Shown piece after piece: positions 57,493 to 62,699 of a stretch of 64,000 nt of DNA. Origin of the DNA: Alphaproteobacteria bacterium. GTDB taxonomy: Bacteria > Pseudomonadota > Alphaproteobacteria > RF32 > CAG-239. Where the stretch lies: positions 8,184 to 72,183 of the forward strand of contig SUUR01000003.1 in the NCBI GenBank assembly GCA_015062435.1, given 5' to 3'. Within the stretch, counting starts at the first letter, position 1, and each line of letters starts with the position of its first letter. The position numbers and the translations under genes were made by a program. The notes beneath the pieces were generated by a model. That model searched no databases and was not told the origin of the DNA. It saw only the letters and a program-made list of their open reading frames with translations.

Positions 57493-57561
57493 ATCACAAA
57501 CCTCATTTATTATCAAAATATTTTTTGAGATTCTATAAACAAAACCCACAAAAGTAAAGGA

Positions 57562-57598
57562 TAAAAAAACAACCACCTGACAAAACAAAGTGGTTGTT
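57562..57598 (-). terminator. Rho-independent terminator of the 57617-58144 gene
   Basis: AACAACCAC (57568-57576) pairs with GTGGTTGTT (57590-57598). The A7 at 57563-57569 becomes a T-run on the minus strand. Confidence 0.75.
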
Positions 57599-57616
57599 AC
57601 AGTAACAATAACAAAA

Positions 57617-58144
57617 TCAACTACGAGCTTTTGCTTTTATCATTGCAATAGTTTTCTGAACCCAATTCCTTTTTGGTTTACCCATATTATCTTTTGCCGC
57701 ACTTTTTAACATTCTGTTTTTCTTTATCTTCGGAAGTATTTCCTCAATTTTTTTTGCATCATTTTTCGCAACAATAGCTCGCTCCATTACAGAACCAAAT
57801 CTGTCATCTCGTTCTTTCTTTTCTTTTTCAAAAGCCAAATACTCATCAACCGAAAAAGTTATTTGCTTACCATTTTCATCAAAATAAGGTTCGTTATCAC
57901 TACGATATGACATGCTGCCATCACTCATCATTTTAAATGTAAACATATTAAAACCCTGTAATTTTCTATTTTCATCAAAAACAGGTTCCCCATAAAAAAC
58001 TTGCGCTCCACCTTTTCTTAAAAGTTGAACTTCAGAAGTACATTTTTTCTCTCCTGTTTCAAAACTTTTAACAAATTTTTCTTTTTTTATTCGTTCAATG
58101 GTTTCTTTTGCATTTTGAACATCTCTATCACTATACTTTCCCAT
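57617..58144 (-). CDS. Hypothetical protein, K/E-rich
   Basis: 175 aa from the ATG at 58144, preceded by GGAGG. No recognisable motif. Confidence 0.5.
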   Translation of the reverse strand: MGKYSDRDVQNAKETIERIKKEKFVKSFETGEKKCTSEVQLLRKGGAQVFYGEPVFDENRKLQGFNMFTFKMMSDGSMSYRSDNEPYFDENGKQITFSVDEYLAFEKEKKERDDRFGSVMERAIVAKNDAKKIEEILPKIKKNRMLKSAAKDNMGKPKRNWVQKTIAMIKAKARS

Positions 58145-58308
58145 TTTTGCCTCCACAAAAACTCCTAACTCTATATATTCTACCATAATATATATTTTTT
58201 TCAATATCAAATCACATAATCTGACACAACAAATTCCGTCCACCGGCTTCAATAATTATTTTACGCTTTTCAGAACTTATGTTATCATAATTGTTGGGTA
58301 ATAAAAAT

Positions 58309-58703
58309 GTGCCGCTCATGCATTTGTATGTACAAGTCATGTCCCATGTTTATCCGCTTGTCCGTATAAACTAATAGCGGCACCTTTAATGACCACGTCC
58401 GACACCTCTAACTATCATTGTCCGACTTGTTCGGACAACTTGAGGAAATTTAAGCGAGATACTCCCCTCACACCGGAGTATGACAGGAAAGTAGAGCCGA
58501 AGCATGACCATTAAGGGAAGGAGCCTTATTTCTACCCTCTTAAAGGAGGAGGATTGTACCCTATATGGGAGAGGATTCTACCCTTATTTTCCTCCCCATT
58601 GATGGGGGAGGATTAAGGTGGGGGTGAGGAATACCGCCAATTGTCATGTTGAGCGAAGTCGAAACATCTCATGAGATTCTTCGACAAGCTCAGAATGACA
58701 ATT
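58309..58703. repeat. Cluster of short GC-rich palindromes and degenerate tandem units in a non-coding region
   Basis: Palindromes and inverted repeats: GTGCCGCT (58309-16) with AGCGGCAC (58376-83); TTGTCCGA/TCGGACAA (58418-38); TACTCC/GGAGTA (58460-80); CCTCCCCA/TGGGGGAGG (58591-611); a 65-nt near-perfect palindrome (58639-58703). The GGAGGATT-nTACCCT units are repeated about three times across 58515-58630. Confidence 0.7.
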
Positions 58704-59026
58704 TAGAAATTTTGAAAACTATCGCTTGCGTGTTAGAATTTTATGTGCTTAATTTATTAAATAACAGGTCGAACTGATGATTAATATTTTTTATAATTTT
58801 TTGCCTTTGCCCCACATTTTGACGATGAACCAGAGCTTATCGAGATGAATGCGGATGTTATTTTTCTTGTTGTGATATCATAAATGACAACCCCACTTGT
58901 GAAACATGTCCCAATGAGCTCAAACTCGACATCTGTCCCAATAATCCTTACTGTTCATGTGTAGGCGAACTGGAATAAACTAAATCTATATTCAAGCTCA
59001 AACCTTCCTCCATATCAACAAGAAAA

Positions 59027-59058
59027 GACCTTAGGTTTTATCCTAAGGCCTTTTTTTT
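59027..59058. terminator. Hairpin terminator, the presumed native terminator of tRNA-Val, now separated from it by the IS insertion
   Basis: CCTTAGG (59029-35) pairs with CCTAAGG (59042-48). T8 lies on the plus side and TCTTTTCTT on the minus side. Confidence 0.65.
59051..59058. repeat. Target-site duplication, left copy (TTTTTTTT)
   Basis: Exactly 8 T immediately outside the left IR, identical to 62164-62171. Confidence 0.7.
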
Positions 59059-59073
59059 GGGACTTATATACAA
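59059..59073. repeat. Terminal inverted repeat distal to the transposase: GGGACTTATATACAA
   Basis: Exact reverse complement of 62149-62163. Confidence 0.85.
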
Positions 59074-59097
59074 AACTACCCAAAAGGGAGGTTCTAA

Positions 59098-59325
59098 ATG
59101 ATACGCTTCCTTGAAAATATACTATTTAAGATTGCCGCCTATGTTTTATTTCGGCAGATTATCGCGTTTAATAAAAAATGGACAGGAAAGACCGATAATA
59201 TGCACGGCAAATATGCCTGTGATATTAACGGACAACCCTATGTTATGAGCTATACGCTAGAAAAAGGCGAAAAAATCACCTTTGAAGATTTAGAGCGTAT
59301 AACGATGACAAGAATGAGTTCTTAA
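59098..59325 (+). CDS. Hypothetical small protein with a hydrophobic N-terminal helix
   Basis: 75 aa with a strong SD (AAGGGAGG, 7 nt upstream). Starts 25 nt inside the IS end. Its 3' end overlaps the convergent KTSC-like gene by 36 nt. Confidence 0.5.
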   Translation: MIRFLENILFKIAAYVLFRQIIAFNKKWTGKTDNMHGKYACDINGQPYVMSYTLEKGEKITFEDLERITMTRMSS

Positions 59326-59508
59326 TATGTTTATTATTCTTTCGTGTGACGGGTCTTTTTGTAGCTTAAGGAATGTTTCTTCGCTTACATCAAAGACCAA
59401 TAGATAGCCTCCACCGTTTCTGAACCATACGATAAGTTCATTTCCAGGTTGGTATTCAGTATCAGCATATATAGGACTGTCAACCTCTACTGTATTATCT
59501 ATTATCAT
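59290..59508 (-). CDS. KTSC-domain-like small protein
   Basis: 72 aa. ...YQPGNELIVWFRNGGGYLLVFDVSEETFLKLQKDPS fits the KTSC pattern (x-L-x-V-x-F-x-NG-x-Y-x-Y-x-V). ATGA overlap with the methyltransferase stop. Confidence 0.5.
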   Translation of the reverse strand: MIIDNTVEVDSPIYADTEYQPGNELIVWFRNGGGYLLVFDVSEETFLKLQKDPSHERIINILRTHSCHRYTL

Positions 59509-61001
59509 TCCTTATGTACTCCGCCATTAACGACAAGATGAATTACTTCTATTGACGCTATGCCGTCGCGGTCAACGCCGCGGACGGCTATGTCATATTT
59601 TCCTGTTTTTAGAATGATTTTCTGTATTCCGTCATTATTACGCAAAACCTCGGCGGCAAAACCTTTTTTTGCGTCATAATCCCAGTCCCATTGCCAAAGC
59701 TCTATATCGTCGCCTGTAGCCTTAAAGATAACTTCCTTATCCCCTTTGTCGCCAACTTCTTTCCAATCAAACGACAATGAAATACGCGGCGGCATACCGA
59801 TTGGAATAATTTCATCAACGCGAACAAGAGTTATTTCAAAATCTTCTTCTCTTTTTAGTCGCGCGACTTCTTCAACAGCTCCGCGTCCGAAAGAAAAAGC
59901 GATAATATAACCGCGTTTGCATTGTTTGTTAAAGCGTGACATAGCCGATTTAAAATTATCAATTACATTTCGACCGATATTATCGCTTCGCTTTACCTGA
60001 ATCGGGAAAGACGCTCGTCCTTCATGCAATAAACCGTCAATACCGCCGTCACCGACTTGTTTTGTATGGGATTCGCCGCCATACTGTTCAACAATAAAGC
60101 GTTCAAACTGAAAAGGCGGGGCGTTTCTGATTGTTTCATAATCATATTTCGGCGTTTCAACACTAAAAGTTGGACGAAACAAGTCATTTTCTAACCTCGC
60201 CCGCGTAACAGCGATAGCGTGGACAGACTGATCAATGCCGATAAAATGGCGTTTAAGATTGTGCGCCGCTACAAGAGTCGTTCCGCCGCCACAAAATGCG
60301 TCCAAAACAATGTCACCTTCGTTTGAACAGGCTTTTATTATCCGCTCTAATAAAGCAAGCGGCTTTTGTGTCGGATAGCCAATACGTTCAGGACTATTTG
60401 CGTTTAAAACATTTATCTCCCACCAATCTTCTGGTATTTTTCCAAGAGGATTTGGTTTGTATACTTTATTCGTTCCTTTATGTCGTCCCCACATTGCATC
60501 GTCTTTTCGACCGACACCTTCTGCTCTATAAGCTATTCTAACAGCGTCAGCATTAAAAGTATGTTCGTTACTTTTTCTGTAAAAGAAAATTGTATCATGT
60601 CTTCTACCAAAAGCAGAACGTGGGGCGCTTCCTCCTCTATAACACCAAGCTATCTCATTGACAAATAAAGGTTTACCCCCCCCCCGCACAGGTTGTAATT
60701 TGTCAAGAATATGCACGCGTATGTATGCGTTAGCGTGCCAGTCGCAATGTACAAAAAGAGAGCCTGTCGGTTTTAAGACGCGCCAGATTTCATCTATCCT
60801 TTCTTTCAACCAACCTATGTAATGTTCCATACCGCCAGCCCAACGGTCTGTAAAACTTCTGACTTCGCCACTATCTCCCCAAATTACTTCATAATTACGG
60901 TTACTAAAAAAGGGTGGGTCGATATAACATAAATCAACGCTTTCACTAGGAATTGATTTTAATACTTGTAGATTATCCCCTAATATCAATCTGTTTTGCA
61001 T
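59505..61001 (-). CDS. Beta-class N6-adenine/N4-cytosine DNA methyltransferase fused to an Mrr-like (PD-(D/E)xK) restriction-endonuclease-fold domain and a C-terminal PKD-like domain
   Basis: 498 aa. Methyltransferase motifs: IV DPPF (aa 28-31), TQKP (aa 211-214), I FCGGGTT (aa 236-242). Nuclease fold: FERFIVE...GDGGIDG...IQVK (aa ~299-337). PKD-like: KEVIFKATGDDIELWQWDWDYD...YDIAVRGVDRDG (aa ~421-480). Confidence 0.8.
   Translation of the reverse strand: MQNRLILGDNLQVLKSIPSESVDLCYIDPPFFSNRNYEVIWGDSGEVRSFTDRWAGGMEHYIGWLKERIDEIWRVLKPTGSLFVHCDWHANAYIRVHILDKLQPVRGGGKPLFVNEIAWCYRGGSAPRSAFGRRHDTIFFYRKSNEHTFNADAVRIAYRAEGVGRKDDAMWGRHKGTNKVYKPNPLGKIPEDWWEINVLNANSPERIGYPTQKPLALLERIIKACSNEGDIVLDAFCGGGTTLVAAHNLKRHFIGIDQSVHAIAVTRARLENDLFRPTFSVETPKYDYETIRNAPPFQFERFIVEQYGGESHTKQVGDGGIDGLLHEGRASFPIQVKRSDNIGRNVIDNFKSAMSRFNKQCKRGYIIAFSFGRGAVEEVARLKREEDFEITLVRVDEIIPIGMPPRISLSFDWKEVGDKGDKEVIFKATGDDIELWQWDWDYDAKKGFAAEVLRNNDGIQKIILKTGKYDIAVRGVDRDGIASIEVIHLVVNGGVHKE
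60676..60685 (-). repeat. Homopolymeric G10 tract (C10 on the plus strand) inside the methyltransferase coding sequence
   Basis: Read directly. It encodes R-G-G-G (aa 106-109), is currently in frame, and is the only run of this kind I saw in the window. Confidence 0.9.
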
Positions 61002-61150
61002 TCTTCATTACCTTTGTTGTTTTCAATAGCGGGTTTAGAAACGGAAGCGGGCTTGTCGTTATCCGCTTTTGGCTTTGGCTGAATAAGAGCCATAGCCACT
61101 TCTTCCATACTTGCGTTTATTGGTTCAATAAGTTTTGCCTGTCTTGCCAT
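60986..61150 (-). CDS. Small hypothetical protein (54 aa) between the transposase and the methyltransferase
   Basis: MARQAKLIEPINASMEEVAMAL..., with SD AAGGA 9 nt upstream. Overlaps the tnp 3' end by 26 nt and the methyltransferase start by 16 nt. Confidence 0.4.
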   Translation of the reverse strand: MARQAKLIEPINASMEEVAMALIQPKPKADNDKPASVSKPAIENNKGNEECKTD

Positions 61151-62048
61151 GTGTGAGTTCCTTATATGATAAATGCTTGTTATAACCGCCCGTAACGGCT
61201 GAACGGACACGTTCCAGAGGGGAAAGGGTACGCATATTATGACGACTTGCAAATTCGTTTACATAACGCTGTAAATGCTTTTCGCTCCACTTATGATAAA
61301 TGCCATAATAACCACGTTTCAAAATAGCCCAGAAACTTTCTATGCCGTTTGTATATACTTTTTCACGAACATATTCACCTACGCCGTGATTAACCTTTTG
61401 ATGATTAAATTCTTTCAGTCCTTTATATCCGCCGAACTGATCTGTATAAACGTTCGCGCCAATCTTTACGTTTGCGCGGATTGTCGCAGTTAAAATACGA
61501 CTATTTGTATTTTCGACAGCGAAAGCCTTGACAGCTCCGTCACGTTCTTTTAAGCCGACAACGGGAGCTTTACCGACAGCGCCACGTCCAGAACGCAATT
61601 TTTTATCGCTATGTTTGTTCTTTTCGCTTCCGCCTATATACGTTTCATCAACTTCGACAGTTCCCGATAATTTGTCAGTATATTGCAACCATGATTCGCG
61701 AATACGGTGGGCTAAAAACCATGCTGTTTTTTGCGTACAATTCAGGTATTCAGCTAACTGAATTGAAGAAACGCCTTTTTTAGAATTAACAAGAATATAA
61801 ATAGCAAGAAGCCATTTTTGCAAAGGAAGTTTACTATCTTCAAGCATAGTTCCTACACGAACAGAAAAATGTTTACGGCATTTCTTGCAACGATAAGGCA
61901 TAGGCTTGCCGCATTTTGAAACATGAATGCTACCGCAATACGGGCAAACAACGCCGTTTTTCCAACGCAAATTTTCAAAAAACTTTGCCGCATCTTCTTC
62001 TGTCGGGTATTTTTGAAAAAAATCTATCAGACTAAACTTATCAGACAT
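61125..62048 (-). CDS. IS1595-family transposase (Zn-ribbon plus ISXO2-like DDE domain)
   Basis: 307 aa from the ATG at 62048 (SD AAGGAAAGG). Zn ribbon CPYCG...CKKCRKHF, then VEVDETYIGG, YTDQFGGY and TNGIESFWAILKRG. Confidence 0.9.
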   Translation of the reverse strand: MSDKFSLIDFFQKYPTEEDAAKFFENLRWKNGVVCPYCGSIHVSKCGKPMPYRCKKCRKHFSVRVGTMLEDSKLPLQKWLLAIYILVNSKKGVSSIQLAEYLNCTQKTAWFLAHRIRESWLQYTDKLSGTVEVDETYIGGSEKNKHSDKKLRSGRGAVGKAPVVGLKERDGAVKAFAVENTNSRILTATIRANVKIGANVYTDQFGGYKGLKEFNHQKVNHGVGEYVREKVYTNGIESFWAILKRGYYGIYHKWSEKHLQRYVNEFASRHNMRTLSPLERVRSAVTGGYNKHLSYKELTHGKTGKTY

Positions 62049-62148
62049 TGGCCTTTCCTTTCTTGCTTTTAGCAATATAGGCCGAATCTTATGGCTAGTC
62101 AAGTATTTTTATTATTTTCAATAATTGCTTGCGCTGTTCTGGCTAGCG

Positions 62149-62163
62149 TTGTATATAAGTCCC
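62149..62163. repeat. Terminal inverted repeat proximal to the transposase: TTGTATATAAGTCCC
   Basis: Exact reverse complement of 59059-59073. Confidence 0.85.
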
Positions 62164-62171
62164 TTTTTTTT
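62164..62171. repeat. Target-site duplication, right copy (TTTTTTTT)
   Basis: Exactly 8 T immediately outside the right IR, 3 nt from the tRNA-Val 3' end. Confidence 0.7.
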
Positions 62172-62174
62172 AAT

Positions 62175-62250
62175 TGGTGGGCGCTGAGAGGTTCGAACTC
62201 CCGACCCTCTCGGTGTAAACGAGATGCTCTTCCAGCTGAGCTAAGCGCCC
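62175..62250 (-). tRNA. tRNA-Val (anticodon TAC) with encoded CCA
   Basis: 76-nt cloverleaf folded by hand. Acceptor GGGCGCT/AGCGCCC, D stem GCTC/GAGC, anticodon stem TCTCG/CGAGA with loop TTTACAC, and T arm GGGAG-TTCGAAC-CTCTC. Confidence 0.92.
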
Positions 62251-62426
62251 TTTCTTGCTTACGAAAAAGTTTATACACTCAATAAAATAATTAATCAAGC
62301 AAAAAATTCAAAAAAAAATTACTTTTTTTTATTTGTTATCATAAATCATATAGTTAACAAAATAATTAGGGAGTATGTTTTCACACACTCCCTACTATCA
62401 AATCACCAGTTTTCAATAACTGTCAA

Positions 62427-62699
62427 CTAGTTTACAGAATCCTGCAAAGCTTTACCAGCTTTGAATTTAGCTTGCTTACGTGCTGGAATTTTGATAGCAG
62501 CACCGGTACGAGGATTACGACCTGTTGTAGCAGCACGTTTAGCAACTGCAAAAGTACCAAAACCAACCAAACGAACTTCATCACCTTTTTTCAAAGCTTT
62601 AGTGATAGACAATACCAAAGCGTCTAAAGCTTTAGCAGAATCAGATTTGGTCAAACCAGTTTCGCTAGCAATGCTAGAAATCAATTCATTTTTATTCAC
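62427..62699 (-). CDS. hupB: DNA-binding protein HU
   Basis: 90 aa. Contains MNKNELI...GFGTF...RNPRTG...KF. Confidence 0.95.
   Translation of the reverse strand: MNKNELISSIASETGLTKSDSAKALDALVLSITKALKKGDEVRLVGFGTFAVAKRAATTGRNPRTGAAIKIPARKQAKFKAGKALQDSVN

Follow-up and report, generated by a model that had tools for sequence, protein, structure and literature searches.

A gene at 59505-61001 on the minus strand of the 64,000-nucleotide stretch of Alphaproteobacteria bacterium DNA analysed here (contig SUUR01000003.1; the whole stretch is called the window) encodes one polypeptide composed of a beta-class amino-methyltransferase (MTase), an Mrr_cat-type PD-(D/E)xK nuclease domain and a PKD-like beta-sandwich. 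The catalytic motifs of both enzymatic domains are conserved, the MTase contains a hypervariable insert, the gene is solitary, and it lies in a recently inserted transposon. Our preferred reading, held with modest confidence, is that the gene encodes a self-contained, single-polypeptide restriction-modification (R-M) enzyme, Type IIC/IIS-like and resembling a helicase-less relative of Type III Mod proteins, which is carried as cargo by an IS1595-family transposon. The initial annotation, made from the sequence of the window, described the three domains but overlooked both the minus-strand orientation of the gene and its status as cargo of an IS1595-family transposon.

Domain architecture of the fusion protein

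The open reading frame (ORF) runs uninterrupted for 498 codons in the ORF list and its translation, and the encoded protein is laid out as follows.

59505-61001, minus strand: MTase-Mrr-PKD fusion gene, 498 aa, stop codon at 59505-59507 (ORF list, Pfam, full-length homologues at 49-78% identity)
60147-61001, minus strand: beta-class amino-methyltransferase, aa 1-285 (Pfam, PDB sequence and fold matches, invariant motifs)
60417-60647, minus strand: variable insert of the MTase, aa 119-195, putative target-recognition domain (identity 0.35, length 68-147 aa)
59790-60146, minus strand: Mrr_cat-type PD-(D/E)xK nuclease domain, aa 286-404, with E300, D318, D322, Q335 and K337 (Pfam, hhalign, conservation, model topology)
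59508-59789, minus strand: PKD-like beta-sandwich, aa 405-498, with the WDW/WDF signature at W438 and D439 (AlphaFold2, Foldseek, HMMER)

Endonuclease-type and methyltransferase domains were both assigned to this one polypeptide, by Pfam and by hhalign to Mrr, and Pfam found no further domain besides N6_N4_Mtase and Mrr_cat. The AlphaFold2 model of the whole protein had a mean predicted local distance difference test score (pLDDT) of 84.9 and a predicted template modelling score (pTM) of 0.79, with low pLDDT across aa 160-175, inside the MTase insert; a model of aa 290-498 alone reached a pLDDT of 91.3. A PHROGs search with aa 290-498 and with the small ORFs nearby gave no match.

The N-terminal ~280 aa had been described as a complete beta-class MTase, and this description was borne out. 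Pfam N6_N4_Mtase (PF01555) matched aa 22-263 with 164 bits (cut-off 26.7; E = 6e-48), and the MTase was placed in the beta class because DPPF (motif IV, aa 28-31) precedes FCGGGTT (motif I, aa 236-242), with the variable insert between them. D28, P29, P30, F31, F236 and G238-240 were invariant in 47 homologues. The best solved relatives, by PDB sequence and by Foldseek, were the adenine MTases M.RsrI, M.BceJIV, M.MboIIA and CcrM; PDB chains of Type III Mod proteins also matched the MTase core, the CcrM model of NCBIfam matched below threshold, and Foldseek with the full-length model listed methyltransferases only among its matches. The DPPF motif and the adenine-MTase matches suggest that the product is probably N6-methyladenine (m6A).

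Variation within the family was concentrated in the MTase insert, for which mean pairwise identity was 0.35 and length ranged from 68 to 147 aa (alignment A1), compared with identities of 0.74 in one half of the MTase core and 0.66 in the other; the Mrr domain (0.56) and the PKD tail (0.43) had intermediate values. This distribution indicates that the C-terminal domains are not sequence-specific readers. At the level of the alignment, a hypervariable recognition insert on a constant catalytic core is the pattern of R-M enzymes that diversify their specificity.

The Mrr_cat pattern noted in the middle of the protein likewise stood, with GDGGIDG at aa 317-323, IQVK at aa 334-337 and GYIIAFSF at aa 364-371. 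Pfam Mrr_cat (PF04471) matched aa 292-399 with 38 bits (gathering cut-off 21; E = 2e-9), covering positions 2-112 of the 115 in the profile, and hhalign aligned the domain with Escherichia coli K-12 Mrr at a probability of 92% (E = 6e-7), with FE...GDGGIDG...vQxKR in register. D318, G320, D322, G323, P333, Q335 and K337 were invariant in the 47 full-length homologues, and E300 was conserved in at least 90% of them. Among 148 divergent representatives at 50% identity, found by a search with the C-terminal half, 115 carried the motif D.G.DG...(Q/E).K; the remainder were mostly fragments, together with a few changes of Q to S or Q to L. In the model, a helix with E300 is followed by a strand starting from D322, a strand with Q335-x-K337, a helix and a strand, and this predicted alpha-beta-beta-beta-alpha-beta order fits the PD-(D/E)xK core. 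Profile searching of the PDB with the Mrr-domain alignment found no solved relative, and the structural kinship of the domain therefore rests on Pfam and on the hhalign match to EcoKMrr; Foldseek with the C-terminal model was dominated by PKD matches, and the Mrr domain was not matched separately. In EcoKMrr, the MspJI family and Type ISP enzymes the active site is PD-QxK, and Mrr-type PD-QxK domains serve MspJI and the Type ISP enzymes as cleavage modules (PMC12707154; PMC3874165). The Mrr-like domain of the fusion protein looks catalytically intact, with an active site that appears to be under selection, and would be expected to cleave DNA.

The tail was predicted to be a PKD-fold beta-sandwich, as first proposed, and the AlphaFold models, Foldseek and HMMER agreed on this, although no Pfam PKD model (PF00801 or PF18911) matched the fusion protein at E <= 1. 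Residues 407-497 were all-beta with pLDDT above 90 in both AlphaFold models, and the best PDB matches of the C-terminal model were PKD domains (6aem, 4l9d, AAVR 7wqp and ColH 4jgu; E = 6e-4 to 1e-2), the PKD matches including those of Vibrio Epp and PrtV PKD1, AAVR and ColH/ColG, with template modelling scores relative to the target of 0.56-0.67. In an exhaustive HMMER search with aa 290-498, aa 429-486 matched 10 repeats of a 1411-aa protein to which Pfam assigns 14 PKD domains. W438-D439, which correspond to the WDF signature of PKD domains, were invariant, and the conserved residues of the tail were mostly fold-determining.

Nuclease swaps and helicase-linked relatives

Instead of cutting, the Mrr-like and PKD-like domains might be DNA clamps or dimerization or processivity modules of an orphan MTase that serves epigenetic marking or protects the element from host restriction, an explanation that we consider unlikely. 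There is a precedent in CcrM, whose SAND-like C-terminal domain binds the non-target strand (PMC6787082), and one homologue of the fusion protein is encoded in a phage morphogenesis region. The inactive Mrr-like family NA-iREase1 of Pfam weakly matched some relatives, but it gave no match to the window protein.

Two comparisons bear on this explanation. The first concerns MTases of the same clade (37-47% core identity), in which nuclease modules of non-homologous types occupy the corresponding C-terminal position: an HNH module at loci L078, L071 and L058, a T5orf172/GIY-like module at L057 and Mrr_cat at L013 and L056. The exchange of unrelated nuclease folds at one position points to cleavage, rather than DNA binding by a dead fold, as the selected function, and would be hard to explain under selection for DNA binding alone. 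Related beta-class MTases ending in HNH were also seen at L041, L044 and L070.

The second comparison is with six distant relatives (L018, L021, L028, L031, L043 and L069) that have an MTase-(Mrr-like) layout, several of them with a PKD-like tail, and in which the gene is followed by a ResIII helicase gene and then by a gene for a small TnsA-like nuclease, forming a Type III-like operon. These operons occur in Chitinophagaceae, Dehalococcoidia, Saccharibacteria, Desantisbacteria, a sponge symbiont and a Hydrothermarchaeota archaeon. The six proteins retain a catalytically decayed version of the Mrr-like fold, which shows that such a version is tolerated and speaks for an orphan MTase with a non-cutting domain. 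As mapped by their weak alignments, the residues aligned to D322, Q335 and K337 were lost in all six, and their tails clearly contained no D...QxK string. Of 44 helicase-less fusions, 37 had the D/Q/K triad and three others D/S/K (Fisher's exact test for triad loss against helicase linkage, p = 1e-4). The proteins with an intact triad can be called solitary because no widely shared neighbour gene was found among 34 loci. Among the solitary proteins the E/D/Q/K set is invariant or nearly so, its loss coincides exactly with the presence of a separate nuclease gene, and the helicase-linked relatives provide a natural control that favours an active nuclease in the helicase-less fusions, as far as sequences can tell. 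We rate the orphan-MTase explanation below the preferred reading of a self-contained R-M enzyme on three grounds: the pattern of conservation, the exchange of modules and the control given by the helicase-linked relatives.

The IS1595-family transposon and its insertion site

The fusion gene lies within a transposon with the following parts and surroundings.

59059-62163: IS1595-family transposon carrying the fusion gene, 3,105 bp (terminal inverted repeats, duplication, transposase, GC content, empty site)
59059-59085: left terminal inverted repeat, 27 nt, beginning GGGACTTATATACAA, 85% complementary to 62137-62163
62137-62163: right terminal inverted repeat, 27 nt
59051-59058 (left) and 62164-62171 (right): target-site duplication TTTTTTTT, 8 bp (T8), read from the sequence
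61125-62102, minus strand: IS1595-family DDE transposase (Pfam DDE_Tnp_IS1595, E = 3e-40; N-terminal Zn_ribbon_IS1595, E = 9e-12)
60986-61150, minus strand: 54-aa ORF starting MARQAKLIEPINAS, overlapping the transposase gene at its end and the MTase gene at its start
59290-59508, minus strand: 72-aa ORF, its start codon and the MTase stop codon overlapping as ATGA, with a weak KTSC match
62175-62250, minus strand: tRNA-Val(TAC) (ARAGORN, Rfam)
59023-59054: bidirectional terminator hairpin (terminator scan), now parted from tRNA-Val by the insertion

Like known IS1595 elements, the transposon encodes a DDE_Tnp_IS1595 transposase that has a zinc ribbon at its N-terminus, ends in short inverted repeats and is bordered by an 8-bp duplication, although the duplication TTTTTTTT is a low-complexity run and weak evidence by itself. 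IS1595 elements reportedly generate 8-bp duplications, and subgroups with passenger genes are said to exist. Ends similar to those of the window element flank related elements at L001, L071 and L095, and the GC content of the transposon is 40-42% against a background of 30-36%. The transposase likely starts at the ATG at 62048 and not at the listed TTG at 62102, since its homologues align from approximately aa 17-19; it is 62-64% identical to the transposases beside the closest MTase homologues. The transposase gene, the 54-aa ORF, the fusion gene and the 72-aa ORF lie on one strand in overlapping frames, and a promoter-like site with 10 of 12 matches is present just inside the right end. As the initial annotation had stated, no separate restriction or specificity gene accompanies the fusion gene, the neighbours being the IS1595 transposase and three small ORFs. 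A small ORF similar to the 54-aa ORF (MARKPKLIEPIW...) follows the transposase at L095, and the 54-aa ORF may be a conserved transposon gene. The 72-aa ORF is 49% identical to a 65-aa ORF at L001:5435-5626 (minus strand) in a related transposon, where it lies near the opposite end.

The insertion site could be reconstructed from two congeneric genomes (G002 and G003), in which the site is empty and the terminator hairpin is contiguous with tRNA-Val; the transposon therefore entered between the 3' end of tRNA-Val and its terminator. It is single-copy in its own 1.45-Mb genome, and the Mrr+PKD module was found in none of 40 related genomes, 24 of which belong to the same genus. The insertion is recent. 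The genome that contains the window derives from faecal or gut metagenomes, and an independent faecal sample from 2025 (X7) contained an allele of the transposon differing by 1-1.5%. One X7 contig, matching 59052-59230 of the window, runs 65 nt past the left end into sequence unlike the window flank and may represent a different insertion site or a diverged flank. No metagenome contig over the region joined both flanks without the element, a result that says little given the low coverage and the use of contigs only.

Related genes were also found on mobile DNA, comprising IS1595 transposons, a phage and islands with toxin-antitoxin genes; one homologue lies on an AlpA/SocA island. The closest homologue (78% identity; L001) is carried by a related 4.3-kb element with perfect 24-nt ends that also contains HicAB, and another homologue, at 62% identity, is enclosed by perfect 27-nt repeats and neighbours a transposase 64% identical to that of the window. 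Elements with the HNH and GIY-like versions (L071 and L057) have perfect 27- and 30-nt ends, and further cases adjacent to a transposase occur at L013, L041, L056 and L078. Several of the MTases with HNH or T5orf172/GIY-like modules were seen directly downstream of an IS1595 transposase, inside perfect inverted repeats of 27-30 nt.

These associations raise the question of whether an active nuclease serves mainly the mobile element, through post-segregational killing or by cutting unmethylated, element-free DNA and so favouring retention or spread. MTase-nuclease fusions are recurrent IS1595 cargo (the window, L001, L095, L071 with HNH and L057 with the GIY-like module), the fusion gene appears to form one operon with the transposase through overlapping frames, and the HicAB pair in the L001 element is a toxin-antitoxin pair. 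However, a transposase was adjacent at only ~9 of ~85 loci, most family members thus lying elsewhere, the link between the enzyme and transposition is without direct evidence, and an R-M system can serve addiction and defence at once. We consider service to the element improbable as the main function, while a transposon-stabilizing role would be compatible with the self-contained R-M enzyme that we prefer.

Distribution of the family and comparison with known systems

The initial annotation called the architecture unusual, and this did not hold. A word-indexed search returned ~8,000 relatives, and the best 120, which were examined, were filled by the three-domain layout: almost all were 480-590 aa long and matched at 98-100% query coverage with 49-78% identity. 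In metagenomes, more than 100 full-length clusters at 90% identity had this architecture, from many phyla, with sources including termite-gut Treponema, Prevotellaceae and Endomicrobium as well as Planctomycetes, Thiotrichales and others; with one genome per species, relatives were found in Bacteroidota, Cyanobacteria, Actinomycetota, Chloroflexota, Acidobacteriota, Patescibacteria and archaea. MTase+Mrr fusions were commoner still, and many relatives had these two domains but no PKD tail. The same annotation had allowed that the architecture might prove to be both common and already characterized; it is common, and no characterized member was found in the searchable literature, the PDB, or the GenBank phage and PLSDB plasmid collections. 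In the latter two collections, tblastn with aa 290-498 found no match, and in the literature we found no description of an Mrr_cat/N6_N4_Mtase or Mrr-like beta-class fusion, nor of one as an IS1595 passenger. As far as can be told, the architecture is common but uncharacterized.

Compared by its published description, BtgZI appears to be the closest studied analogue. It is an active Type IIC/IIS enzyme (GCGATG 10/14) with an N-terminal MTase and a C-terminal PD-QxK motif (PMC4081073), and the fusion protein is likewise a single polypeptide in which an N-terminal amino-MTase precedes a C-terminal PD-(D/E)xK variant with Q in place of E. However, the MTase of BtgZI is alpha-class whereas the one studied here is beta-class, and no PKD tail is described for BtgZI. 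An N-terminal beta-class MTase with a C-terminal nuclease also departs from the Type IIC/IIG layout, in which only BtgZI is described as having the MTase first (PMC4081073).

With the Mod proteins of Type III systems (EcoP15I and Mbo45V) the protein shares a beta-class MTase with a central variable recognition insert. Unlike those systems, it has no helicase or Res gene in or beside the window transposon, nor do its close relatives, and it differs from the six Type III-like relatives in that the nuclease motif is intact on the Mod-like protein of the window and lost in the helicase-linked proteins. CcrM also has a beta-class adenine MTase core followed by a further C-terminal domain, which it requires on DNA; this domain is SAND/PWWP-like, non-catalytic and not of the PD-(D/E)xK fold, and CcrM has no PKD domain (PMC6787082). 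A fold shared with the CcrM C-terminal domain was considered and rejected on the basis of that description.

EcoKMrr and MspJI belong to the same Mrr_cat family and share the signature FE..GDGGIDG..QxK, but they have an N-terminal winged-helix or SRA reader, lack an MTase and cut modified DNA (PMC12707154), whereas the N-terminal partner in the window protein is a complete MTase. A Type IV-like hybrid, in which the Mrr domain cuts foreign methylated DNA and the MTase acts as sensor or reader, would draw on the fact that Mrr_cat is best known from these modification-dependent enzymes (PMC12707154; PMC2938202), and is very improbable because the winged-helix and SRA domains that confer specificity on a non-specific Mrr catalytic domain (PMC12707154) are absent here by Pfam and because the catalytic and SAM (S-adenosylmethionine)-binding motifs of the MTase are intact and invariant, so that it writes marks and does not merely read them; cutting its own product would, moreover, be suicidal. 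Of the three options offered in the initial annotation, self-contained modification plus cleavage is the one that we favour, and a modification-dependent hybrid and a methyltransferase with a dead nuclease fold are less favoured.

Proposed activity of the enzyme

We infer the following activity, including cleavage, target base, recognition sequence, oligomeric state and the role of the PKD tail. The beta-class MTase would use its variable central insert to recognize a short sequence in DNA, which it would methylate with SAM, probably at adenine N6. The Mrr-type PD-QxK domain, on a linker of ~15 residues, would be a non-specific cleavage module that cuts near unmethylated sites, probably only after two or more enzyme molecules assemble, and the PKD tail would most likely provide protein-protein or spacing contacts for this assembly. 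Carried on a transposon, such an enzyme could act as a defence or addiction module. Action of MTase monomers before nuclease dimers form is a general proposal for the safe establishment of Type IIC genes (PMC12707154).

Several points weigh against this reading. Cleavage is predicted, no assayed family member having been found, and the acidic and lysine residues could also be conserved because they bind metal or DNA without cutting it. The mapping of residues in the six helicase-linked proteins is uncertain (weak alignments, E = 5e-7 to 6e-3; n = 6). Single-chain R-M enzymes typically place the nuclease at the N-terminus and use a gamma-class MTase (PMC4081073), unlike the fusion protein, and PADLOC reported generic MTase profiles only, including MTase_III on the MTase core. 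The survival of a cell upon arrival of the gene is explained only by the general monomer-before-dimer idea (PMC12707154). Finally, a 591-aa family member at L097:6001-7776 lies on a phage-like contig, with the large terminase gene on one side and the portal gene on the other, and solitary MTases in that position usually serve anti-restriction. At the same locus, a second N6_N4 MTase gene is present just upstream of the 591-aa member and a PDDEXK_2/Rpn-like gene downstream.

Other features of the window and the host genome

A non-coding element of ~100-140 nt is located at 58641-58834 of the window, with a summed contig depth of 40-53 compared with 5-12 around it. It has matches of 89-94% on several other contigs of congeneric genomes, and Rfam gave only sub-threshold matches to AaHKsRNA41; by these data it looks like a conserved multi-copy repeat or small RNA. 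Over the whole range scanned with Rfam, 57500-62600, tRNA-Val stood out alone from sub-threshold noise. The genome that contains the window (G000) also encodes five further beta-class N6/N4 MTase-like genes, which is many for 1.45 Mb:

C27:42088-42834: MTase-like gene
C45:5622-6356: MTase-like gene
C24:9352-10086: MTase-like gene
C37:34849-35580: MTase-like gene
C9:3643-3810: MTase-like gene

Implications

The fusion appears to be a single-chain R-M enzyme of a known sort but a new variant, widespread and apparently unstudied, with an activity that is predicted from its sequence. If these proteins do cut and methylate, they would constitute a very compact (~400-500 aa) and abundant class of R-M enzymes, concentrated in uncultured gut, termite-gut and environmental bacteria, and current catalogues of defence systems would miss this class, since PADLOC recognizes it as no more than a generic MTase. 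More tentatively than for the window protein itself, we propose that beta-class Mod-like MTases with an interchangeable C-terminal Mrr, HNH or GIY-like module form a large, unrecognized class of helicase-less, one-protein R-M systems across bacterial and archaeal phyla, which IS1595 transposons may have recruited repeatedly as self-defence or addiction cargo and in which the PKD domain may be a new assembly or spacing element.

The modular design, in which a hypervariable insert and a swappable nuclease are combined with a constant MTase core, would offer many natural specificities and make these proteins an attractive starting point for new Type IIS-like reagents. A PKD domain on a cytoplasmic DNA enzyme would extend the known uses of this fold. 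Recurrent carriage by IS1595 elements would tie a simple insertion sequence to epigenetic and defence functions, and would explain how methylation patterns can jump between genomes in one transposition event.

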